Notes: generated from the letters alone by a model not told the origin. DNA of 64,000 bases from Cyanobacteriota bacterium (GCA_046045965.1 JBJOKS010000017.1:58134-122133), one strand, 5' to 3'; positions 45,849 to 64,000 are shown, numbered from the stretch's first letter. Numbers and translations are program-made.

Positions 45849-46052
45849 GATCTAGGTTTTTGGTGGTTTTTGTTATTTTCCTATTTTTAAGGTAATGAAC
45901 CACGTTCGCTTAGCGTCCCGCAGGGATAGACACGAAGGAAGCGAAGGAAGAGGGGAAGAAGGAGAGTTTTGTTTCACGCAAAGGCGCTAAGGAGCAAAGG
46001 AAGAGGATAGCGATGGCTGGATATCTGGCTTTGAATCACAATCTAGACAAGA

Positions 46053-46970
46053 ATGGGAGAACTGGTTATATTAATCACTTGTATCATTCATCAAAACAAG
46101 GAAATTATTTTGACTACCTTTGCTAGTTACAAAGCAACAGCATCTCAGTGGATTACTATATTTGATTCTCCTTTCTATCCAGATTCTTTGGATGAGGCGA
46201 AAATTCTTTATGAGAATGTATTATTGCGTTTTACAGAAGTGGTAGAACAATCTCAAAGTTCTGCAAATTTACTGGAGATTATCACAGAAGAGCCTGATCC
46301 TTTACGAATTCAATTACTTAGAGTCTTTCGCAGATACGTTTCTCCAGATACATCTGTAGAAATGACTAAGAGGAAAAGCAAAATATCTGATATTATTAGA
46401 GATTTTGGTTATAGATTTCGTCCCCTAGAACAAGTTAAACAAAATTTAAATAGTCGTCCTGTACCTGATGAAACTCTCATGGCAATACTTTTAGAACAAA
46501 GTACACGAGGACAAAAAGGTTATGATTTAACAGAAAGTTTTTTCTTATGGTTTAACAAAACATTTAGCAAGGATTATTTAATTCGTGGTCCTGTGCGTGC
46601 TGGAAAAGATGTCATGCTAAATAAAGTATTAGATCATTGGCAAAATAAAACACCTGCTGATATTTTCATATCTCGTTTAGATGGTACTGCCTTAGTAGTT
46701 GGATTTGCTCGTTATGACTCCGATAGGGGAGGTTCTCAAGAAGATGATAGAACAGGTGGTAATCGAGATAAAATTACCCAAATCCTTAATTACAGTCAAA
46801 CTTATAATTTACCATTAAAAGTCTTGATGCTCAATGACGGACCTGGATTACTTCTCGGTTCTATGTGGGATGATTATGCTAACCTGGAACAATATGGACA
46901 AGGTAAAGTTATTGTTTGTACTTTAAAAATGTTAGATGATAGATTTACAAAAGATTGGTTAGAGAGTTAA
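46053..46970 (+). CDS. Type II restriction endonuclease, BstEII-like (start may be TTG 46110)
   Basis: RRYVSPDTSVEM, GFARYDSDRGGSQEDDRTGGNRDK and NDGPGLLLGSMW match my recollection of R.BstEII; convergent with a methyltransferase. Confidence 0.75.
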   Translation: MGELVILITCIIHQNKEIILTTFASYKATASQWITIFDSPFYPDSLDEAKILYENVLLRFTEVVEQSQSSANLLEIITEEPDPLRIQLLRVFRRYVSPDTSVEMTKRKSKISDIIRDFGYRFRPLEQVKQNLNSRPVPDETLMAILLEQSTRGQKGYDLTESFFLWFNKTFSKDYLIRGPVRAGKDVMLNKVLDHWQNKTPADIFISRLDGTALVVGFARYDSDRGGSQEDDRTGGNRDKITQILNYSQTYNLPLKVLMLNDGPGLLLGSMWDDYANLEQYGQGKVIVCTLKMLDDRFTKDWLES

Positions 46971-48258
46971 GTTTAGTATTCCAATCTTTGATAGTTGGTT
47001 CAGAAATTAATTCTAAATTTGGTGATTCTTCAATATAAAAATCTAAGCCTGTTTTCAAAATCCTATTGACTTCAATTAAACTAATTTGTTTATATTGATT
47101 ATTACCATTTTTACCATTAACAAAGTCACCCATTGCTTCACTACCATTAACTAAACGTTTAATGATAGTATCAATAGACAATGGAGAATTATCAATACCT
47201 ATCCATTTTCTTCCTAATTCTTCAGCTACAGCTAAAGTAGTTCCACTTCCTGCAAAAGCATCTAAAACTATATCTCCAGGATTTGAGGAAGCCATGATTA
47301 TTCGTTTCATCAAAGCTGCATTTTTTTCTGTTGGATAACCAGTAATTTTAATATTTTGATTGTGTGCATCTTTAAAATCCAGCCAAATATCTTGAATAGA
47401 AATACCTTGACTATTATCTAAATATACTTTTCTTCTGGGATTACCATTCGCAGACCAATATATATCACCTCTTGCATGCATTTCATCTAAGGTTTCTGGT
47501 GTATATTGCCAATGTTTACCAGGCGGTGGTAACATACCCCTCCAAGGTTGACCGGTTGCTCCTTTTCTTACACCGGGAGCATGAATAGGAACTTTTTTAT
47601 ATAGTCTTCCTGTTGCTTCTTCTACATATTGATACTCTTTTTTAATAGCCTCGTCTGTCCAATTTTCAAAAGGTTGATTCCAAACATAATTATCTGTTTT
47701 AGTATAGAAAAGAATATAGTCGGAAATATTGCCATATTGTTTGCGGGTGTAGTTTTTAGGATTACATTTTTTTCTAGTAATCCAATTCCGAAAATTCTTA
47801 ACTCCAAAAATTTCATCCATGATAATTTTCACAGCAAAAGCCATGTTTTCATCTAGATGTACATAAATAGAACCTGTTTCTGATAAAAGTTCTCTGATTA
47901 AAATTAGACGTTGACGCAAAAATTCTAAATATTCTGCTCCTCCCATGAGATCATGATAAGCATGATTTCTACTACGAGATTCAAAACTAGTACCTGTTGC
48001 ATAAGGTGGATCAATATAAGCTAGGTTAACTTTTCCGTTAACATTCTCATCATTTAATAATGTGATTAGGACGTTTAAGTTATCACCATATATTAATTTA
48101 TTTCTAGGTTCTCTATCAACACTAATTACATGATTTAATTTGGCTGGCTGAATTTTAAATATATCTTCTATAGGTGTTTTACCTTCATACTCAATGCGGA
48201 ATGATGTTATATTTTGTTTCTGATTACGTCCGTTTTTGGTAGGTATTCCTGTTGCCAT
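46945..48258 (-). CDS. Beta-class amino DNA methyltransferase (cognate M)
   Basis: YIDPPY precedes YPTEK and LDAFAGSGTT. Confidence 0.92.
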   Translation of the reverse strand: MATGIPTKNGRNQKQNITSFRIEYEGKTPIEDIFKIQPAKLNHVISVDREPRNKLIYGDNLNVLITLLNDENVNGKVNLAYIDPPYATGTSFESRSRNHAYHDLMGGAEYLEFLRQRLILIRELLSETGSIYVHLDENMAFAVKIIMDEIFGVKNFRNWITRKKCNPKNYTRKQYGNISDYILFYTKTDNYVWNQPFENWTDEAIKKEYQYVEEATGRLYKKVPIHAPGVRKGATGQPWRGMLPPPGKHWQYTPETLDEMHARGDIYWSANGNPRRKVYLDNSQGISIQDIWLDFKDAHNQNIKITGYPTEKNAALMKRIIMASSNPGDIVLDAFAGSGTTLAVAEELGRKWIGIDNSPLSIDTIIKRLVNGSEAMGDFVNGKNGNNQYKQISLIEVNRILKTGLDFYIEESPNLELISEPTIKDWNTKLNSLTNLL

Positions 48259-48390
48259 TTTGATTGATAAGTTTATTATGTTATAATTATACTATTATAG
48301 TATAGTGAAAGTAATAGTACAATTACAATATTTGCGTATGTTACAGAGAAGTAATAATGCTAAAATACAGAAAAACAAGGAGATAAATTA

Positions 48391-55001: not shown

Positions 55002-55143
55002 TTTTGAGGTTTTTAAACGAACCACAAAGGCACGAAGAACACGAAGAGAAGAAAGTGTAAGAGAGTTTTTCCGTTTGCTCTCTAAACTCTCTCTGCGCCT
55101 CTGCGTCTCTGCGTGAGCTAACAATTTAACATCTTAAATCAAA

Positions 55144-55437
55144 ATGAATGAAACTTTACTAGCGGCTTTATTTGTGCTTGTTTTGGCTTCTTTTATCGGC
55201 TTTGAAGTCATTAACAAAGTTCCCCCGACTCTTCACACTCCTTTGATGTCGGGTTCTAATGCTATCTCTGGCATTTCGGTAATAGGTGCAATACTCGCTG
55301 CGGGGGAGAGAAACACCAATTTATCAGTAATTTTGGGTTTAATTGCGGTGATATTGGCAATGGTTAACGTTGTCGGTGGTTTTTTGGTTACAGACAGAAT
55401 GCTGCAAATGTTTAAAAAGAAGGATGTTAAAGCATGA
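55144..55437 (+). CDS. NAD(P) transhydrogenase alpha subunit, part 2
   Basis: LHTPLMSGSNAISG and VTDRMLQMF motifs. Confidence 0.93.
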   Translation: MNETLLAALFVLVLASFIGFEVINKVPPTLHTPLMSGSNAISGISVIGAILAAGERNTNLSVILGLIAVILAMVNVVGGFLVTDRMLQMFKKKDVKA

Positions 55438-56837
55438 ATACTTTTATACCAACTGGGATTCAGCTAACTTATTTATTAGCTGCATCATTATTTATCTTTG
55501 GTTTAAAAAAGCTGGGTTCTCCTGCAACTGCACGCAATGGTAATGTGATCGCTGCGGTGGGTATGTTGTTAGCTGTGGTTGCTACTTTGTTAGATCAGCA
55601 CGTATTAAATTACGAGATGATTTTAATAGGCTTAGTAATTGGTTCAGTTATTGGGGCTGTGGCAGCTTACAAAGTGCAAATGACAGAAATGCCCCAAATG
55701 GTAGGTTTACTCAATGGTTTGGGTGGTGCATCTTCCGCACTTATCGCTGTGGCTGAGTTTTGGCGGTTGTTGGGAAGTTCTCAACCTATCCCCCTCGCTG
55801 TCAACATCTCTATGTTATTGGATGTGTTGATCGGTGGTGTGACGTTAACCGGTAGTTTTCTGGCTTTTGCTAAGTTGCAAGGTTTGGTTAGTGGTACTCC
55901 TATTACCTTTCCTTTGCAGCAACCTGTTAACATCTTGCTTTTGGGTTCTTATTTAGCCGGAAGTGCTTATTTAATCATCTCACCGGATAGTTTACCGATA
56001 TTTTTAGCAGTGGTAGCGGTTTCCTTGGTGTTGGGGGTGATGTTTGTATTACCCATTGGTGGCGGTGATATGCCGGTGGTGATTTCGCTCTTAAACTCTT
56101 TATCAGGAGTTGCTGCTGCTGCTGCGGGTTTTGTGGTGATGAACAATATGTTAATCATCGCCGGTGCTTTGGTGGGTGCTTCGGGTATCATCCTTACAGA
56201 AATTATGTGTAAGGCCATGAACCGGTCGTTATTCAGTGTGTTATTTAGTGCTTTTGGTTCTGTAACTACTGCAAGTGGTGGAAGTGCTGCGGGTACAAGT
56301 AATCAAACTGTTCGCAGTATTGACGCTGAGGAAGGGGCGATGATGTTGGGTTATGCTCGTTCTGTGGTGATTGTACCAGGTTATGGGATGGCAGTTGCTC
56401 AAGCACAGCATAGCGTCCGGGAGTTGGCGGATCAGTTAGAGCGTATGGGTGTGGATGTGAAATATGCGATACATCCGGTTGCGGGGAGAATGCCGGGACA
56501 CATGAATGTATTATTGGCGGAAGCTAATGTACCTTATACACAGTTATATGATATGGAGGATATTAACCCTCAGTTTGAACAAGCTGATGTAGCGTTAGTG
56601 ATTGGTGCTAATGATGTGGTTAATCCTGCGGCGCGTAGTGATGCGAATAGTCCGATTTATGGAATGCCGATTTTAGAGGTTGATCGGGCGAAGCAAACTA
56701 TTGTGATTAAGCGCGGTATGAGTGCGGGTTTTGCTGGTGTGGATAATGAGTTGTTTTATAAGGATAAGACGACTATGTTGTTTGGTAGTGCTAAGGATAT
56801 GGTGGCTAAGTTGGTTAGTGAGGTGAAGCAACTTTAG
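55434..56837 (+). CDS. pntB: NAD(P) transhydrogenase beta subunit
   Basis: GGGDMPVVIS and HPVAGRMPGHMNVLLAEA motifs. Confidence 0.95.
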   Translation: MNTFIPTGIQLTYLLAASLFIFGLKKLGSPATARNGNVIAAVGMLLAVVATLLDQHVLNYEMILIGLVIGSVIGAVAAYKVQMTEMPQMVGLLNGLGGASSALIAVAEFWRLLGSSQPIPLAVNISMLLDVLIGGVTLTGSFLAFAKLQGLVSGTPITFPLQQPVNILLLGSYLAGSAYLIISPDSLPIFLAVVAVSLVLGVMFVLPIGGGDMPVVISLLNSLSGVAAAAAGFVVMNNMLIIAGALVGASGIILTEIMCKAMNRSLFSVLFSAFGSVTTASGGSAAGTSNQTVRSIDAEEGAMMLGYARSVVIVPGYGMAVAQAQHSVRELADQLERMGVDVKYAIHPVAGRMPGHMNVLLAEANVPYTQLYDMEDINPQFEQADVALVIGANDVVNPAARSDANSPIYGMPILEVDRAKQTIVIKRGMSAGFAGVDNELFYKDKTTMLFGSAKDMVAKLVSEVKQL

Positions 56838-56986
56838 GTTAATTTTAGGGGTGTAGTTTTTGACTATGCCCTTTTTTGTCACGCAGAGGCACAGAGACGC
56901 GGAGAGTTTTGTTTCGCGCAATCTCCGTCAGGAGATCCCGAAGGGTAGACGCTAAGGAGCAAAGGCGCAAAGAAGAAGAAGTAAGA

Positions 56987-57904
56987 TTAAATTCTTTGAA
57001 ACCATTTATTTAAAGCATGATAAAGAAAAGTATCTAAACTCTGATTTTTAGAATTTTGTTTTGCAAATTCAATATCAGTTGCAGTTATTTTACCTAGTCC
57101 TTTAGCGGCTGGTCTAACTATAGCTGCATTGTTCCAATCTGTCCAAATTCTGAATCTGTAAATGTTGTCTTGTGTACCCCATAAAAAATTACGAGGTAGC
57201 CACAAAAACAACACAAGTTCTTTTTTACTATTTAACCTTAATTCAGCACAATATTTAGTTTTGCCTTTACCGTAATAAATTCCACCATCCTGCACTATTT
57301 CTTCCATGCGATAATCAAATTTTAAAATTGTCTCTCGAAACTTGAGTAATTTATCTCTTTCTTGATGTGTACATTTTTCAATTAATTGATAAAATCGTTT
57401 ATGAGGAATAGGAATATTTCTATTTACATGATTTTCTGGCGAATAATCGAAATTTAATTTCCAGTTAAGAGTAGTATCTATATTAATTATGTTTAGACTA
57501 AATTTTTGCTCTTGACAAATAATTTTAAACTGCAAAAAATTAAATTTTAGCTGATGATATTTTCGATCAGTATAGTTATCTCTATGAAAATTTGGAGTAA
57601 CAGCAATTAAAACTACAGGAACTTGAAAATTAATATGTTCAGGAAAAGGTTTTTCATCTAAAAGAGCATCATAATAACGAGTAAGTTGTTGTACAATATA
57701 TCTATCTTCAGAGTTTTTTAATTCTATAATTACAAGTTCCTTATTTTTACCAAAAGCTAAAATATCACAATATTGTCCACTGACTTGATACTGTCGTTTT
57801 AAAGGTTTATATCCAAACAGCTTTTCTAAGTTGTTCCAAACCAAATCTTCTAAATCTTTTTCGCTTTCAAATTCCCATCCGCTTGCTACTTGTCTTAATT
57901 TCAT
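56987..57904 (-). CDS. NucS/DUF91-like PD-(D/E)XK endonuclease domain protein
   Basis: FESEKDLE...CDILA...IIELK...QLTRY. Confidence 0.75.
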   Translation of the reverse strand: MKLRQVASGWEFESEKDLEDLVWNNLEKLFGYKPLKRQYQVSGQYCDILAFGKNKELVIIELKNSEDRYIVQQLTRYYDALLDEKPFPEHINFQVPVVLIAVTPNFHRDNYTDRKYHQLKFNFLQFKIICQEQKFSLNIINIDTTLNWKLNFDYSPENHVNRNIPIPHKRFYQLIEKCTHQERDKLLKFRETILKFDYRMEEIVQDGGIYYGKGKTKYCAELRLNSKKELVLFLWLPRNFLWGTQDNIYRFRIWTDWNNAAIVRPAAKGLGKITATDIEFAKQNSKNQSLDTFLYHALNKWFQRI

Positions 57905-57989
57905 TTGTATCTATCTGTTAAACTATGAGTGTGAGTATATTTACATATTTTACCTTAACCTGTTTCATTTAATACGATACAGTAATTTA

Positions 57990-58148
57990 TGCGATCACTC
58001 TTTCTTCTCTTCTTCCTTCGTGTTCTTCGTGTCTTCGTGGTTCGTTAAAAAAGGATGCTGGGGAAAAGGAGCGATCCTTCCTCCGCGTTCTCTGCGTCTC
58101 TGCGTGAGATAAAAAAGAATGTTTGGGGAGTTGAAGGGGTGCGATCGC
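57990..58148. repeat. Inter-cassette repeat 1 (HIP1-bounded)
   Basis: ...GTTTGGGGAGTTGAAGGGGT-GCGATCGC. Confidence 0.8.
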
Positions 58149-58153
58149 AGCTT

Positions 58154-58603
58154 TTAAATTTCTCCCCATTCCCTAGCATCAATAAAAATAGAAAGATGCT
58201 TTTTATTACTCGTGGCAATAATTACCTCATGACCATAATTAGCAACTAAAATAGATTGAGCAGCTAAAATAACATCACCATCTAAAGCCTTATTATCTGC
58301 TGTAGATTTACCTTTGTTTCTCACTTCAGCCCATAATTCTGCTGCTTTTAACATCACTTCTGTGGTAATAGGAAGATAAATAATTTCTGCTTTCAGTTGA
58401 TTAAGTTTTCTAATTCCTGATAACTTATTTGCTCTTAATAATTCCCGTCTAATTTCATCATCTATAATTTCTGGTAAAATTACCTCATAACCTCTTTCAA
58501 AAAGACTATAAAACCATTCTTGACATTGCACAGCTAGAGGATTTCCTTTAGGATTAGTAATTAATCCAACTGGTGCAGAATCTAAAACAATAACCTTACT
58601 CAT
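58154..58603 (-). CDS. PIN-domain toxin (VapC-like)
   Basis: VIVLDS, EIRREL, LDGDVILAAQ and ATSNKKH motifs. Confidence 0.85.
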   Translation of the reverse strand: MSKVIVLDSAPVGLITNPKGNPLAVQCQEWFYSLFERGYEVILPEIIDDEIRRELLRANKLSGIRKLNQLKAEIIYLPITTEVMLKAAELWAEVRNKGKSTADNKALDGDVILAAQSILVANYGHEVIIATSNKKHLSIFIDAREWGEI

Positions 58604-58609
58604 TTTATT

Positions 58610-58939
58610 TTAAATTGAAATACCATTCATAGATTCAATAATTTCTAAAGTTTCTTGTTGTTCTTGTTGATCATCTGATTCATTCCATGACTCAAACAAT
58701 CTTTTAATATTAGTTTTTCTGTGTTCTTTTTTAATTGCATCACTTTCATTAATTTCATTAATGGCATTTTCCCAGTTTTTCAAAGATGTCTGTTTCATCG
58801 TTACACTTTGACGAAATAAACGGACAATTTGTAGTAATTCGGGTATATATTCTTCTGGAGTATGTTCAATTTCTAGTAATAAATCATTGCGGGGTTTTGC
58901 GGATGATTTAGCTGTAATGGATTGGTGATTGTTAATCAT
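58610..58939 (-). CDS. Putative antitoxin
   Basis: Directly upstream of the PIN gene; LLLEIEHTPEEYIPELL N-terminus and an acidic tail. Confidence 0.65.
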   Translation of the reverse strand: MINNHQSITAKSSAKPRNDLLLEIEHTPEEYIPELLQIVRLFRQSVTMKQTSLKNWENAINEINESDAIKKEHRKTNIKRLFESWNESDDQQEQQETLEIIESMNGISI

Positions 58940-59060
58940 AAAATTCTAGATTTGATTATTTTTGTATATTACCAGTATATCGGATCAGAATAAGTAATGT
59001 CTGAAATTTATAAAATGTGATAACTACGGTGATCTAAATGATTCCTGTGAAGTGCTTTTC

Positions 59061-59240
59061 TATCGCTGTTTGGGAAGTTGAGGGGGTGCGTTAGCGTTAG
59101 CTTACCGAAGGTATCGCTGTTTGGGGGAGTTGAGGGAGTGCGTTAGCGTTCGCGTAGCGTCTCGAAGAGATAGCTTACCGAAGGTATCGCTTTTGGGAAG
59201 TTGAAGGGATGTGATAGCGAAGCACTCCGTAGGAATCGCT
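59061..59240. repeat. Inter-cassette repeat 2: three units with interrupted HIP1 sites
   Basis: Three copies of ATCGC-TGTTTGGGAAGTTGAGGG..-GCG[21-22 nt]ATCGC. Confidence 0.85.
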
Positions 59241-59246
59241 TTTATC

Positions 59247-59609
59247 TTAAAATGGAATCCATTCCAACTTATCAATCCATTCTTCCGCTTCAGTAGCTTC
59301 CCAAACAAACACAAGTTCCTGTGCTATTTTTGCTATTGGTGTTCGGGGACGCAACCAAAATAAACCCCAAATATGACCACCTTCTCCCCAATGTACTTCT
59401 AAATGTCCTGGCATACTAGCACGATTATCTGTTACTAAAACTCTTTGAGATAATTGTAAATAACGCAAAATATCAGGATCTAAAGTACCTGTTGGTGGTG
59501 CATTATCTTCACCTACACGCAAAATATCTATTTCAGAATTTAATCTTAAAATAGCTAATTTCAGACGGGGTGGTAAATTTTCATCAAGTAAAAAACGCAC
59601 CTTCACCAA
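59247..59609 (-). CDS. DUF5615 PIN-like toxin
   Basis: RFLLDENL, LDPDIL and VLVTDN motifs. Confidence 0.85.
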   Translation of the reverse strand: MVKVRFLLDENLPPRLKLAILRLNSEIDILRVGEDNAPPTGTLDPDILRYLQLSQRVLVTDNRASMPGHLEVHWGEGGHIWGLFWLRPRTPIAKIAQELVFVWEATEAEEWIDKLEWIPF

Positions 59610-59935
59610 ACACTTACCTGCTGTTGAAATTTTGCACTTTTCAAATTTCTCAATCTTTGTAACAAAGGTGAAGGATGAGTAATTGATTCTTGATAACGTT
59701 GTTCTCGATATTTTTCTAAATTCGCCAAATAAGAATCTACTTGAGGACGATTATGTAAATAATAAGTAATAGTCGCGTAAATTTGCTCTAAACTCACATC
59801 AGGAAAATTAGCACCGATTTCTTCTGGTGTATATCCTTCTAAATAATAATCAAGTACATTATCAATACCAATACGGTGTCCTTTCAGTCGAATATCTTCT
59901 TCTGAGATAAAGTCAAAATAACCTTCTAATTGCAT
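59603..59935 (-). CDS. DUF433 antitoxin
   Basis: IRLKGHRIGID, GYTPEEI and LEQIYATITYY motifs; overlaps the DUF5615 gene. Confidence 0.88.
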   Translation of the reverse strand: MQLEGYFDFISEEDIRLKGHRIGIDNVLDYYLEGYTPEEIGANFPDVSLEQIYATITYYLHNRPQVDSYLANLEKYREQRYQESITHPSPLLQRLRNLKSAKFQQQVSVW

Positions 59936-59985
59936 TACTCTAACCCTACTTTTGTTGCCATATTAATTTATTATAACTCATTATA

Positions 59986-60066
59986 TGCTGTTTGGGGAAG
60001 TTGGAAGGAGTGCGTTAGCGTTCGCGCAGCGTCTCGTAGAGATAGCTTACCGAAGGTATCGCTGTT
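59986..60066. repeat. Inter-cassette repeat 3
   Basis: GCTGTTTGGGGAAGTTGGAAGGAGT-GCG[nested insert]ATCGC. Confidence 0.85.
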
Positions 60067-60068
60067 TA

Positions 60069-60470
60069 CTAAATCTCCCAATCTTCTAATTTTAAATTAT
60101 CAATTCTACTAAATTCTCTAGTATTGTGAGTAATTAAAGTTAAATTATTAGCTATAGCAATAGCAGCAATATGTAAATCATTATTTCCTATAGGAGTACC
60201 TTTAGCAGCCAATTTACTACGAATTTCACCATAAATTAAAGCACATTTATCATCAAAATGCAAAGAAACAAATCGGCCTAAAAATTCCTGCTGCTTTTGC
60301 AGAGTTTTTGCAGGATTATTAGTTCTCATTGCACCATAAAATAATTCCGCTTTCACAATAGAACAAACTACTATATCTATATCAGACAAATCTTGAAGAC
60401 GCTGAATAATTTTTTCTGATCTTTGATTAAGATATTGAATACAAACATTAGTATCTAACAAATATTTCAT
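60069..60470 (-). CDS. vapC: VapC PIN toxin
   Basis: YLLDTNVCI, AELFYG, NDLHIAAIA and THNTREF motifs. Confidence 0.92.
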   Translation of the reverse strand: MKYLLDTNVCIQYLNQRSEKIIQRLQDLSDIDIVVCSIVKAELFYGAMRTNNPAKTLQKQQEFLGRFVSLHFDDKCALIYGEIRSKLAAKGTPIGNNDLHIAAIAIANNLTLITHNTREFSRIDNLKLEDWEI

Positions 60471-60482
60471 CAGTTTGTATTC

Positions 60483-60782
60483 CTAACTATTAATTATTTC
60501 TTCTAAACTATCATCTAAGCTATCATCAATACCTAAATCATCCAGAATAATTGGATCATCAGCACAACTTCCTGATGTTTGATTAATAAATTCTTGCCAG
60601 TCTAATTTATGTTTTTCTGTAGTTATCAAAGTTGTTGGTTTATTGATCAAATTTTTACGAAATAACCGGACAATTTCCAATATTTCTGGTATATATTCTT
60701 CTGGAGTTTGGGCAATTTCTAATAATAAATCATTCCAGGGTGTAGTTGAGGATGTTTCTGTGATGAGTTGGTGATTGTTCAT
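60483..60782 (-). CDS. Putative antitoxin (N-terminus paralogous to 58610-58939)
   Basis: Upstream of vapC; LLLEIAQTPEEYIPEIL N-terminus and an acidic tail. Confidence 0.7.
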   Translation of the reverse strand: MNNHQLITETSSTTPWNDLLLEIAQTPEEYIPEILEIVRLFRKNLINKPTTLITTEKHKLDWQEFINQTSGSCADDPIILDDLGIDDSLDDSLEEIINS

Positions 60783-60906
60783 AGTTTTATTATTACTAAA
60801 TTTCAGTAGATTGATTATATTTTCTAGAATATCATAAATTGATATAAATATCGCTCTTCTCTGTATTCTCTCATCTTACCAATCAATCATACCACTTTTT
60901 TGACAT

Positions 60907-61002
60907 TGCGTGAGGTAAAAAGAGATTTTAGGAGGTTGAAGGGGTGCGTTAGCGAAGCTTACCGAAGGTATCGCTTTTGGGGAAGTTGAAGGAAGTGCGA
61001 TC
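60907..61002. repeat. Inter-cassette repeat 4
   Basis: GCG[TTAGCGAAGCTTACCGAAGGT]ATCGC-TTTTGGGGAAGTTGAAGGAAGT-GCGATC. Confidence 0.85.
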
Positions 61003-61353
61003 TCACTTTGAAAGAGAAAGACTTAAAACCACAGCTAATGCTTGAGAAATCATCTGCATTTCCGATTCAGAAAGCTGACCTAATTTCCTGATTAATCTTG
61101 TTTCCGAAACCGAACGAATTTGAAAAGTATCAACACCAGAAACTTTTGCCAAACTATTCTCAACTGATGGTTCTAATTTTACCATCCAAGGTCTAATAGA
61201 ATATCGTTCTTTCCAATCTGTAACCGGAACAATAACCTTCAAAGGTAAAATACCAATTGCATCATCATTAACTATAATACACGGACGTTTTTTACTAATT
61301 TCCGTTCCTATAGTTGGATCTAAATTAACTAACCAGACTTCACCTCTATACAT
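61003..61353 (-). CDS. MazF/PemK-family toxin
   Basis: RGEVWLVNLDPTIGTEISKKRPCIIV and QIRSVS motifs. Confidence 0.92.
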   Translation of the reverse strand: MYRGEVWLVNLDPTIGTEISKKRPCIIVNDDAIGILPLKVIVPVTDWKERYSIRPWMVKLEPSVENSLAKVSGVDTFQIRSVSETRLIRKLGQLSESEMQMISQALAVVLSLSLSK

Positions 61354-61370
61354 AACTTTAACAACTTCTT

Positions 61371-61613
61371 TTAATCTTCATCTGGATATTCATAAAAATC
61401 TTCTCCATCTAAATCAGAGAAAACAATTAATTCGCCATCACTTGCATAATCTTTAATAGCTGTAATTGCTGCTAATGCTAATTGACGTTTTTGCTGATCT
61501 TTCGTCAAAAATTCTCGTTGTTGATTAACCAATTGTAAAGCAAATTCAGCAATTTGTAACCTTTCATTGATGCTGAGGTGTGGTAAAGATTGAAGAATTG
61601 CTTGCGTTTCCAT
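61371..61613 (-). CDS. Putative antitoxin for the MazF toxin
   Basis: Upstream of the toxin; LSINERLQIAE and an acidic DLDGEDFYE tail. Confidence 0.7.
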   Translation of the reverse strand: METQAILQSLPHLSINERLQIAEFALQLVNQQREFLTKDQQKRQLALAAITAIKDYASDGELIVFSDLDGEDFYEYPDED

Positions 61614-61740
61614 ATTAATTCATCCTCTTAATCATATCAATCTTCTTCCCAAATAATTGCTTTTATTTTCATAGTCAATTTCTGGGAATAAATATAAATA
61701 TCATATCAGAAATTATAAAAAATTTCTCAGTAAATCCAAC

Positions 61741-61930
61741 TTAGCGTTAGCGAAGCTTACCGTATCCCTCACGGGACCGAAGGCATAGGTATCGCTGTTT
61801 GGGAAGTTGAGAGAGTGCGCTCCTCTGCGTTCTCTGCTTCTCTGCGTGAGATAAAAAAGGATATTGGGGAAAAAGTGCGATCGCGTATCCCTGACGGGAC
61901 TCGTAGAGATAGCTTACCAAAGGTATCACT
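61741..61930. repeat. Inter-cassette repeat 5
   Basis: Same unit family with nested inserts and a CTCTGCG 9-mer block. Confidence 0.8.
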
Positions 61931-61948
61931 TAACAACAGAAACTATGA

Positions 61949-62403
61949 TTAAACTGGAAAAAAATCAGCATCTAAAATTTCATCAGAGGAAAAAGGATTA
62001 TCTTGAGGAAAAATAGATAAAGGAAGTCCAGTTTCAATCGCTGCTTCTTGACGAGCGTGGTGATAACAATTATCCAAAACTTCTAAATAATAGCCTTTTA
62101 AACTAGGACTATCTAAAAACGCATCTTGTAATCTTTGACGATGTTCATAAATTGTATACAACCAACTATTTGACCTGTTTTGAGATTGAAACTTATATTT
62201 AAGAAAGTGCATAATTAAAACTCGTAGATTACTTTTTAAAGCATTTTTTCGCTTCTTCCCATACTTTCAATTTCTTCAATTAAATTTTCTAATTCTAATT
62301 CTGAAAACTGCTTATTCTTTAATAAAGAAACGGTTTTTTCAATCCATAAATTATAATCTTCTGCATAAAGATTATTAGTTAATATCATAGATTGATGTGT
62401 CAT
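61949..62403 (-). pseudogene. DUF29-family gene, frameshifted
   Basis: MTHQSMILTNNLYAEDYNLWIEKT...EEIESMGRSEK, then a 1-nt loss in the A-run (T6 at 62244-62249), continuing NALKSNLRVLIMHFLKY. A sequencing error is possible. Confidence 0.8.
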
Positions 62404-62454
62404 AGTTTTCTCCTTGATAAAATACCAATTCCATCACCATTAACTATATAAAAT

Positions 62455-62622
62455 TTAATCCAATTCTTGTTGACTAGCAACTTCTAACCAACCTTGAACA
62501 GCATCTTTCAACATTTCTAATAAATCTTCGTAACTTTCACCCCAGGTATGGCATCATGGTAAAGCTGGTACAGAACCACACCATACACCATCTTCTTCCC
62601 AAATAATTGCTTTTATTTTCAT
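62455..62622 (-). pseudogene. HicB-like antitoxin with in-frame stop
   Basis: MKIKAIIWEEDGVWCGSVPALP*CHTWGESYEDLLEMLKDAVQGWL; TGA at 62554-62556 replaces the Gly of the PGC motif. Confidence 0.82.
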
Positions 62623-62640
62623 AGTCAATTTCTTGGAATA

Positions 62641-62753
62641 TAGCATTTACCAAGCTAGTGAGGTACACAGTTTTTTAGTCTTAGGGAACAGGGAACTCTT
62701 AACAGGGAACAGTAAATAAGTTAGGGTGTACCTCATGAGACTGGGAAACGCTA
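62641..62753. mobile_element. 113-bp MITE with ~28-bp imperfect TIRs and TA duplication
   Basis: TAGCATTTACCAAGCTAGTGAGGTACAC versus the reverse complement TAGCGTTTCCCAGTCTCATGAGGTACAC. An empty-site paralog lies at about 61685-61700. Confidence 0.8.
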
Positions 62754-62775
62754 TAAATATAAATATCATAATAAA

Positions 62776-62890
62776 TAAGTACCCACGCAAAATTAATTGT
62801 ACATATTGATTGAAAACAAAAATGTCTGTATTCCTTCCCTATTCCCTATTCCCTCTCCTAACTATAAAATTTATTTTGCACTACTACTTA
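62776..62890. mobile_element. 115-bp MITE-like element with TAAGTA...TACTTA ends
   Basis: TIRs TAAGTACCCACGCAAAATTAATT / AATTTATTTTGCACTACTACTTA; absent from the paralogous 61690-61720 segment. Confidence 0.65.
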
Positions 62891-62913
62891 TCATATCAGA
62901 AATTATAATAAAT

Positions 62914-63008
62914 GCGATCGCTCTGGGTTCTCTGCGTCTGGAGCGTGAGATAAAAAAGATGTTGGGGTTTTGAAGGAGTGCGTTAACTTAGTTTACCAAA
63001 GATATCGC
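62914..63008. repeat. Inter-cassette repeat 6 (array boundary)
   Basis: GCGATCGC...GTTGGGGTTTTGAAGGAGT-GCG[degenerate insert]ATCGC. Confidence 0.75.
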
Positions 63009-63102
63009 TCAAAAACTTAAATTTTTGCTCAGAAAAGCGATTAACTACAAAACATTTCCCAGTTAATCGCTTGACAATGAAAGGTAAATTATCATCAAAT
63101 AC

Positions 63103-63641: not shown

Positions 63642-63947
63642 CTACTTAACAGAAACAGCATCAACATCAACAGTATTATCTTCTGTAGATACAGACTCAT
63701 TGACGCTAGGTTCCACATCACCTTTACGTGCTTTCCAACCGTCAATTACTAATCCAGAAACTTCTGAAACCAGCAAAGTTAACAAAACAAGGTCATCCAT
63801 TTGACCAACAACAGGGATAAAATCGGGAGCAATATCAATAGGGCTAACAAGATAAGCTATTGTACCAATAATTACCCACCAACGATATTTAGGATTACGC
63901 AGTACATTGCGATACCAAGTGTAAAGCGATTGAATTGAGAAGCTCAT
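63642..63947 (-). CDS. YkvA/DUF1232 protein
   Basis: YLVSPIDIAPDFIPVVGQMDD; GGAGG RBS before ATG 63947. Confidence 0.88.
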   Translation of the reverse strand: MSFSIQSLYTWYRNVLRNPKYRWWVIIGTIAYLVSPIDIAPDFIPVVGQMDDLVLLTLLVSEVSGLVIDGWKARKGDVEPSVNESVSTEDNTVDVDAVSVK

Positions 63948-64000
63948 ATTGTTAACCTCCAGTACCTGCAATTAACTTTTATTTTGGCAAATAATCTTCT

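Follow-up and report, generated by a model that had tools for sequence, protein, structure and literature searches.

Behind pntB in a 64,000-nt stretch of DNA from Cyanobacteriota bacterium GCA_046045965.1 (JBJOKS010000017.1:58134-122133; hereafter the window, on which all coordinates are based) lies an array of small toxin-antitoxin (TA) and nuclease gene modules, set apart by spacers built of a G-rich repeat unit that ends in the palindrome HIP1. Comparison of this array with its counterparts in relatives makes us highly confident that this is a shuffled array whose exchange joints are marked by the repeats, and suggests that the repeats are active in exchange. Our preferred reading, to which we assign a probability of roughly 55%, is that of a fixed-site, one-directional array behind pntB in which the repeats would serve as short homology joints for host recombination; modules would be gained, lost and rearranged there, probably with DNA taken up from relatives by natural transformation. 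A preliminary description of the window had proposed an integrase-independent cassette system with the repeats as exchange sites; the core of that proposal (shuffled order, with module ends at the joints) stands, whereas its attC-like layout, its NucS cassette and its strict exchange at HIP1 do not.

Modules are reordered and exchanged between relatives

Forty-six stretches were parsed, 33 of them with pntB, which lies upstream of the array in all 33, the G-rich strand being its sense strand in every case. The arrays draw on 20 recurring module types (PIN/VapC, MazF, ParDE, Phd-RelE, HicAB, DUF433/5615, XisHI, DUF29, DUF3800, DUF488, a restriction-modification (RM) pair and NucS). Two stretches with units and no recognised module (L046 and L080) were excluded from the order count, leaving 31 pntB arrays, all of which are distinct in content or order. 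Among the module pairs that co-occur at least three times, 49 of 70 are seen in both orders; gene order is thus not fixed across genomes, and differential loss from a single large ancestral array is contradicted by the pairs found both ways round. Not one of 306 gene copies is inverted, some modules are duplicated within arrays (the MazF module of the window is present twice in L004), and some adjacent modules have no intervening spacer. Metagenomic contigs whose pntB ends are 98-99% identical to that of a genome carry other arrays (L179 and L189 compared with L060, and L182 with L067), 7 of the 17 contigs in this comparison being long enough to reveal array modules past the first slot, next to pntB.

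The modules also differ from their anchor in how similar they are between genomes. Median nucleotide identity is 99.5% for ParE, 95.4% for MazF2, 95.3% for PIN1 and 93.8% for VapC, and is lower for the anchor genes (89.8% for pntB and 85.2% for pntA); in one genome pair MazF2 is 100% identical while pntB is 88.9% identical. Because the modules are more alike between genomes than pntB, we read most of them as having spread horizontally, strong selection on TA genes being an unlikely alternative source of the high identity.

Module ends lie at HIP1 joints

The spacer repeat is a G-rich unit of ~29 nt ending in HIP1, with a 21-nt consensus derived from 326 units, TGTTTGGGRAGTTGARGGRRT, followed by HIP1. 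Unit sequences are degenerate, their lengths vary, and a spacer holds from 1 to 17 of them. Most HIP1 joints carry inserts, 21 nt long or nested, that split HIP1. The consulted sections of two papers describe SDR5 as a ~21-nt element inserted inside HIP1 (PMC13756078, PMC4390886); the inserts are built in this way and, matched by form alone, would correspond to SDR5 (SDR5-like inserts below).

Of the 130 minus-strand module ends, 113 have an anchor-proximal HIP1 joint no more than 25 nt away (2.6% for random genomic positions), and 26 of the 31 plus-strand module starts have a HIP1 joint within 90 nt (null 7.6%); the joint detector accepts half-sites and the null consists of random genomic positions, not gene ends. 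The distance from joint to module is specific to each module. When near-identical module pairs were followed outwards, 71 of 73 lost identity within 200 nt, mostly in or just past the left joint, so that breakpoints and repeat are related. The junctions take several positions (in an intact HIP1, in a half-site, where several modules join, or within an SDR5-like insert) and one shared junction falls inside a unit, which speaks against the earlier idea that exchange is strictly at HIP1.

What travels with a module is more than its genes. The type of left SDR5-like insert or joint accompanies the module (93 of 142 comparisons against 70.3 when permuted, p=0.0002; here and throughout, the p-values overstate significance, as the genomes compared are related), and on the distal side module sequence runs into a module-specific partial unit that co-travels (p=0.0025). 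Because the left joint type and the distal partial unit accompany the module and the left unit does not, the travelling piece is the segment that starts within the HIP1 joint, takes in the genes and ends in the next unit. For minus-strand modules this is the reverse of the gene-attC layout initially suggested, which also fails in that 5 of the 20 module types are plus-strand or convergent, the stop-side unit does not co-travel and the promoter-side partial unit does.

Unit matches in GTDB are all cyanobacterial and mostly adjoin TA or defence genes

A unit pattern search over 389 family genomes (first places per genome, clustered) found the unit in 40 genomes and in 12 of 68 genera, confined to one strand in 33 of the 40 genomes among the matches listed; the reversed pattern, as a control, gave no match across the same 389 genomes. 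In a broad sample of 40 post-pntB loci the unit is present in 4, and three of the 36 loci without it have a MazF module anyway. An exact scan of 185,579 GTDB genomes returned 72 partly overlapping stretches, every one cyanobacterial: most are from Anabaena, Dolichospermum, Aphanizomenon, Cuspidothrix, Cronbergia or Trichormus, and a few from Sphaerospermopsis, Richelia, Planktothrix, Prochloron, Floridaenema, Leptolyngbya and Calothrix. The exact pattern had no match in IMG/VR, which leaves viral carriage of the unit unsupported.

Within the 5.29-Mb genome the unit core has six matches (at most 3 mismatches), five of them inside the pntB array, and HIP1 sites number 2712 genome-wide. The nearest open reading frame (ORF) on at least one side is a TA or defence gene in 55 of the 71 GTDB match clusters, a tally rather than an independent test, the reference set being partly derived from the same neighbours (NCBIfam proved too insensitive for this count); the other 16 have no recognised TA or defence neighbour. 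The housekeeping genes of the window are without the unit, and the repeat is therefore not equally common beside such genes. A dispersed repeat beside any gene is ruled out by the array-bound matches and the TA and defence neighbours.

The first slot and traces of capture

The preliminary description had counted a NucS-like gene among the repeat-bounded cassettes. NucS is first in all eight arrays that carry it and has no HIP1 joint toward pntB, which removes it from that set; in general, the gap between pntB and the first slot contains a joint-like match in 3 of 33 stretches. The first slot (0.1-2.5 kb past pntB; L001-L004, L041-L080) is occupied by one-off genes, candidate defence genes, including GmrSD, PLD/DrmC-like, DUF488-DuOB, T5orf172, an AIG1-type GTPase pair, DUF4365, AlkB-like and several without a family.

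Some first-slot genes recur inside arrays. The DUF488 module occupies the first slot in three genomes and lies inside the array in L051 and L189, where it brings along the last ~25 nt of pntB, joined mid-unit; a search of genome loci for further internal pntB ends gave L051 only. The 3' end of pntB in the window (56808-56837), the junction point in L051 and L189, is G-rich and loosely unit-like. MazF3 likewise exists in two forms, one in the first slot and one internal and joined at a HIP1 half-site. An RM module also occurs outside the array (Table 1), and this copy is 87% identical over ~2250 nt to array modules of L052, L058, L060, L062 and L063, the alignment beginning at the HIP1 edge of the array copies.

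Sequence contigs hint at variation in this array. X1 and X2 contigs, from one sample, connect position 61927 with 58153 through 5 additional letters (depths 25.7 and 18.6), a junction for which an excised circle and a second strain with a different module order are equally good explanations. In X1, X2 and X6 there is a lower-depth haplotype that differs at the DUF29 (61949-62403) and hicB (62554-62556) breaks and has spacer 5 joined to the PIN module, which suggests a co-occurring strain with another array. X5 shows a 950-nt back-joint at the 51-nt hicB repeat, possibly an artefact of assembly, at a depth of 4.6. Two modules show depth holes in X1, discarded as evidence of excision since X2 lacks them. 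X2 unitigs cover four spacers with zero differences; given that X2 is possibly the source sample itself, the agreement counts in favor of the assembly and nothing more, and an assembly artefact is unsupported as an explanation of the spacers.

Similar arrays occur at other loci

A further array, built on a variant of the G-rich unit, lies behind chlH in genome G000 (C43:11500-15400, equivalent to L081:6500-10400). Its cargo, a helix-turn-helix gene, ParDE, HigBA and Uma2, lies between two methyltransferase genes. In all seven stretches that include chlH the array is downstream of the gene and its G-rich strand is the chlH sense strand. ParDE modules in pntB arrays bear a remnant of the chlH-type unit. 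Large arrays of like build are present in other cyanobacterial families (G486, G452 and G057), and some of their modules match those of the family arrays, by N-terminus only. Such arrays in other families (L084:5400-14400, L085:1300-11600 and L082:7500-18000) reach up to ~9-10 kb and lie behind genes for an RHS protein, a subtilase, an aconitase and a kinase. Isolated HIP1-bounded units, on the other strand, were seen at C20:19550-19640 and C11:38917 of G000; the former, next to a MazF-like pair, could represent a third site in minimal form.

Probable host recombination at short homology joints

In the host-recombination reading, capture of new genes would take place through the first slot next to pntB or by illegitimate joining, either at a HIP1 joint or next to one. 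Incoming DNA would pair via 30-250 nt of spacer at one end and, at the other, via a long stretch of homology in pntB or a shared module, while slippage and unequal crossover would alter the number of units and keep the unit type uniform within an array. Orientation would be set by the asymmetric unit and not by the palindromic HIP1; TA addiction would slow loss, leaving decay scars at the distal end, and breaks may focus at HIP1 through whatever activity inserts SDR5. We favor this reading because the junctions are heterogeneous, the units degenerate and the orientation strict. The unit is also about as long as the 25-35 bp given as the minimal RecA segment in transformation in the part of PMC6382021 consulted, HIP1 is stated to increase transformation efficiency and to have bounded an smtB deletion (PMC13756078, in part), and ComEC is present.

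Several observations weigh against it. Single units are short and diverged for RecA. No co-travel is seen for the unit adjoining the left HIP1 (p 0.3-0.6, and p=0.32 at positions -8 to -2). Unless unit turnover is fast, a linkage break this sharp is better accounted for by a crossover focused on a site than by crossovers scattered along the spacer. The polarity of the arrays, that is, the excess of units in the first spacer (mean 5.2 vs 2.5, p=0.014, yet in only 16 of 26 arrays) and the coincidence of the G-rich strand with the anchor sense strand, is not obviously explained by host recombination. The mid-unit junction of the DUF488 module is probably one event seen twice. Finally, DUF29, with a median identity of 89.5%, shows no excess over pntB (52% of pairs).

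Alternative readings

A less probable, though serious, alternative is a trans-acting putative site-specific recombinase or nicking enzyme, possibly the SDR5 inserter, for which unit plus HIP1 would be a directional site and which would excise circles and insert them preferentially next to the anchor. We keep this rival because of the sharp break at HIP1 (with the co-travelling partial unit on the right), the enrichment of SDR5-like inserts (9 of the 25 in the genome fall in the pntB or the chlH array) and the polarity. The lack of inversions and the chlH-type remnant on ParDE modules would fit it as well, and HIP1 has been tied to site-specific recombination and to precise SDR5 insertion (PMC4390886, in the sections seen). 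Against it, the co-travel on the distal side is largely gone when complete units only are considered (p=0.055 and 0.80), the junctions take several positions, including mid-unit, and the units are degenerate and variable in length.

Nor is there a recombinase or transposase conserved beside the arrays among the neighbours scanned, insertion sequence transposases being sporadic insertions only. None of the four PF00589 matches in G000 is on either array contig, and the single-contig genome G384 has two sub-threshold tyrosine-recombinase matches and no strong XerC/D-like one. The recombinase matches common to five complete or near-complete genomes are proteins of 430-490 aa, which we take to be heterocyst excisases, encoded far from the arrays. 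No SDR5-like insert lies within 3 kb of the Y1 transposase matches of G000. Two 374-aa tyrosine recombinases of this genome (C30:52111-53235 and C2:227684-228808) are identical in their N-terminal 60 residues.

Host recombination and a trans-acting enzyme may combine. On the wider scale one can speculate, with the same low expectation as for the enzyme itself, about a dedicated polarised gene-capture system unrelated to integrons, in which the G-rich unit and a methylatable HIP1 would form the site and a trans enzyme, also the mobiliser of SDR5, would cut it; defence modules would then enter next to the anchor and pass among arrays of different families, including those at pntB and chlH.

We consider improbable a reading in which the region downstream of a strong gene is a neutral hotspot for insertion, the repeats are passive minisatellites, phased by HIP1, that expand there, and TA modules come in by unrelated routes, the repeats taking no part in exchange. 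The number of units per spacer does behave like a variable number of tandem repeats, the first slot varies without repeats, some neighbouring modules lack a spacer, and a sizeable minority of the GTDB clusters have no recognised TA or defence neighbour; TA systems, moreover, are reported to cluster generally in high-turnover spots (PMC13617665, as seen in part). A passive repeat would leave unexplained, nonetheless, that modules end at the joints at fixed distances and that nearly all near-identical pairs lose identity at or just beyond the joint, that the orientation never flips and that arrays of this architecture are found again behind chlH and in other families.

As had been noted at the outset, no integrase or attC fold is evident. 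R''/R' box pairs of attC were found in none of 12 spacer-strand tests, a single relaxed AAC/GTT fold occurs in spacer 5 only, the folding z-scores of the spacers (-1.5 to +0.2) are not significant, and an Rfam scan, a weak test for attC, gave nothing above gathering. The integron integrase IntI (TIGR02249) was below cut-off in five of five genomes, including one single-contig genome without any match; G000 (92% complete) has a broken 94-aa fragment with a sub-threshold match (C11:8316-8603). Order and content do vary between strains, as in integrons. That the array is a CALIN (attC sites in a cluster without integron-integrases), with degenerate sites served by an integrase elsewhere in the genome, is very unlikely: array form, TA-rich cargo, a GTT triplet in the unit and the lack of a nearby intI in CALINs (PMC4889954, in part) would suit it, and the missing box pairs and IntI, the plus-strand modules and the tandem empty units would not.

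Integron or CALIN membership was therefore rejected on these grounds and on the stop-side unit, which does not co-travel. The modules known as dif modules use XerC/XerD; membership of the pdif/dif class was rejected in view of the co-oriented units, the absence of inverted copies and the lack of a strong XerC/D-like match in G384. A CRISPR array was dismissed as well: units abut each other or whole genes, and no cas match was found among the neighbours scanned.

Features of the window

A Pfam profile search agrees with the families and coordinates of the six minus-strand modules first described, the six related spacers are present, all in one orientation, and the distances from stop codon to joint in five modules are as claimed (5, 7, 6, 0 and ~20 nt; Table 1). 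The cargo modules pair a toxin-family domain with a small upstream partner gene, as type II TA systems do. The partner genes in the PIN, VapC and MazF modules of the window had no Pfam match and are labelled putative antitoxins from their position; two of the three share ~53% identity with each other. A VapC copy in a relative exceeds the NCBIfam VapC cut-off. By comparison, the 40 window ORFs at 1-53 kb comprise zero TA genes and one methyltransferase.

Table 1 Annotated features of the window in order of position
Feature	Position	Strand	Basis and remarks
Methyltransferase + 305-aa partner (RM module), non-array copy	46043..48295	-	Pfam N6_N4_Mtase; no HIP1 at edge here
pntB	55434..56837	+	Pfam PNTB, E 3.7e-189; conserved anchor upstream of array
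Terminator-like hairpin after pntB	56847..56873	+	Consensus scan only; 3 such sites in region, the chance expectation
NucS-like nuclease	56987..57904	-	Pfam NucS_C, E 7.7e-10; variable first slot, no HIP1 joint on pntB side
Spacer 1	57990..58148	+	Pyrimidine-rich short repeats, partial unit, one full G-rich unit ending in intact HIP1 (58141-58148)
PIN toxin-like gene	58154-58603	-	PIN, E 8.6e-4, under Pfam cut-off
Putative antitoxin of PIN gene	58610-58939	-	No Pfam match; PIN module 58154..58939 in 13/33 pntB arrays
Spacer 2	59062..59239	+	Three G-rich units, each HIP1 end split by SDR5-like insert
DUF433 (59603-59935) + DUF5615 (59247-59609) module	59247..59935	-	Pfam; in 5/33 arrays
Spacer 3	59985..60062	+	One unit and HIP1 with nested SDR5-like insert
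VapC/PIN (60069-60470) + putative antitoxin (60483-60782) module	60069..60782	-	Pfam; in 15/33 arrays
Tail of lost MazF2 module, promoter side, fused to partial unit	60871..60945	+	89-96% identical to right flank of relatives' MazF2 antitoxin
Spacer 4	60925..61002	+	Two units; terminal HIP1 half-site abuts MazF stop codon
MazF/PemK (61003-61353) + putative antitoxin (61371-61613) module	61003..61613	-	Pfam; in 8/33 arrays
Duplicated hicB 5' end (deletion scar)	61640..61690	-	98% identical to 62590-62640
Spacer 5	61744..61929	+	HIP1 split by SDR5-like insert; unit; short repeats; HIP1 intact at 61877
Decayed module	61949..62622	-	DUF29 split over two frames (61949-62212, 62236-62403); HicB-like 62455-62622 with internal stop
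Spacer 6 (distal)	62914..63009	+	HIP1 intact at 62914; short repeats; degenerate unit and joint

Pyrimidine-rich short tandem repeats are found at 55010-55124, 56879-56975, 57990-58115 and 61821-61860, in spacers and around pntAB, one type of them in ~90 copies genome-wide. Just upstream of the decayed hicB, a 30-nt inverted repeat surrounds short tandem repeats (62639-62755), resembling a miniature inverted-repeat transposable element. The distal flank holds a DUF1232 gene (63642-63971), shared with L002, L070 and L071, other genomes having unrelated distal flanks. The one G-quadruplex pattern tried matched none of the six window spacers, and a promoter consensus scan was uninformative (28 found, 28 expected). 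RNA contigs of X3 run across spacers, which is no demonstration of transcription.

Significance and comparison with known systems

The function of HIP1 is described as having been open for ~30 years (PMC5861425, PMC13756078, in the parts consulted). The arrays offer a natural substrate for the question: their joints are defined, ~20 modules form the pool and the independent arrangements are many, so that the roles of HIP1, HIP1 methylation, the G-rich unit and RecA are each testable by mutation. They show a cassette system operating without a linked integrase, mark sites of turnover of TA, restriction and nuclease genes in Anabaena/Dolichospermum/Aphanizomenon-type cyanobacteria, and turn the unit into a compact marker whose position can lead to uncharacterised defence genes. 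A dedicated HIP1-directed capture system, if true, would give HIP1 a direct molecular role.

In the literature covered, outside of which lay most subscription papers and supplements, we found no description of HIP1-jointed module arrays. The published work on HIP1 and SDR5 is close in its elements (PMC4390886, PMC5861425, PMC13756078): 21-nt inserts sit in HIP1 at most joints here, and HIP1-bounded deletion and recombination have been reported; the passages available describe dispersed sites and single events, whereas here tandem G-rich units bound exchangeable modules at fixed loci. Homology-facilitated illegitimate recombination (PMC6382021), in which a long anchor is combined with microhomology, suits the capture junctions beside pntB and HIP1, but it is a general low-frequency process, which the sections seen do not link to any dedicated array with repeat joints. 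Chromosomal TA clusters and defence islands (PMC13617665, PMC4963859) share the high-turnover clustering of TA genes, the pseudogenes and the loss, and are, in the text available, tied to transposases or integrases or without defined joints, with no mention there of repeat-delimited modules.

In their overall organization the arrays are reminiscent of two mobile-cassette systems. Like integrons and CALINs, the latter without a nearby integrase (PMC4889954, in part), they are chromosomal, with small TA-rich modules and co-oriented repeats that are reordered and exchanged; unlike them, they have no attC boxes or hairpin and no IntI that we could find; their modules have a fixed orientation that may be either one, their spacers consist of 1-17 empty units in tandem, and their joints are HIP1. 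With the dif modules (pdif) of Acinetobacter (PMC13141974, in part) they have in common that modules, often TA, change places between short sites and carry no recombinase gene themselves, but those modules are plasmid-borne with inversions, whereas the arrays described here are chromosomal and never inverted, and their unit is asymmetric and degenerate. The array behind pntB thus works like an integron or a dif-module array, yet belongs to neither class.

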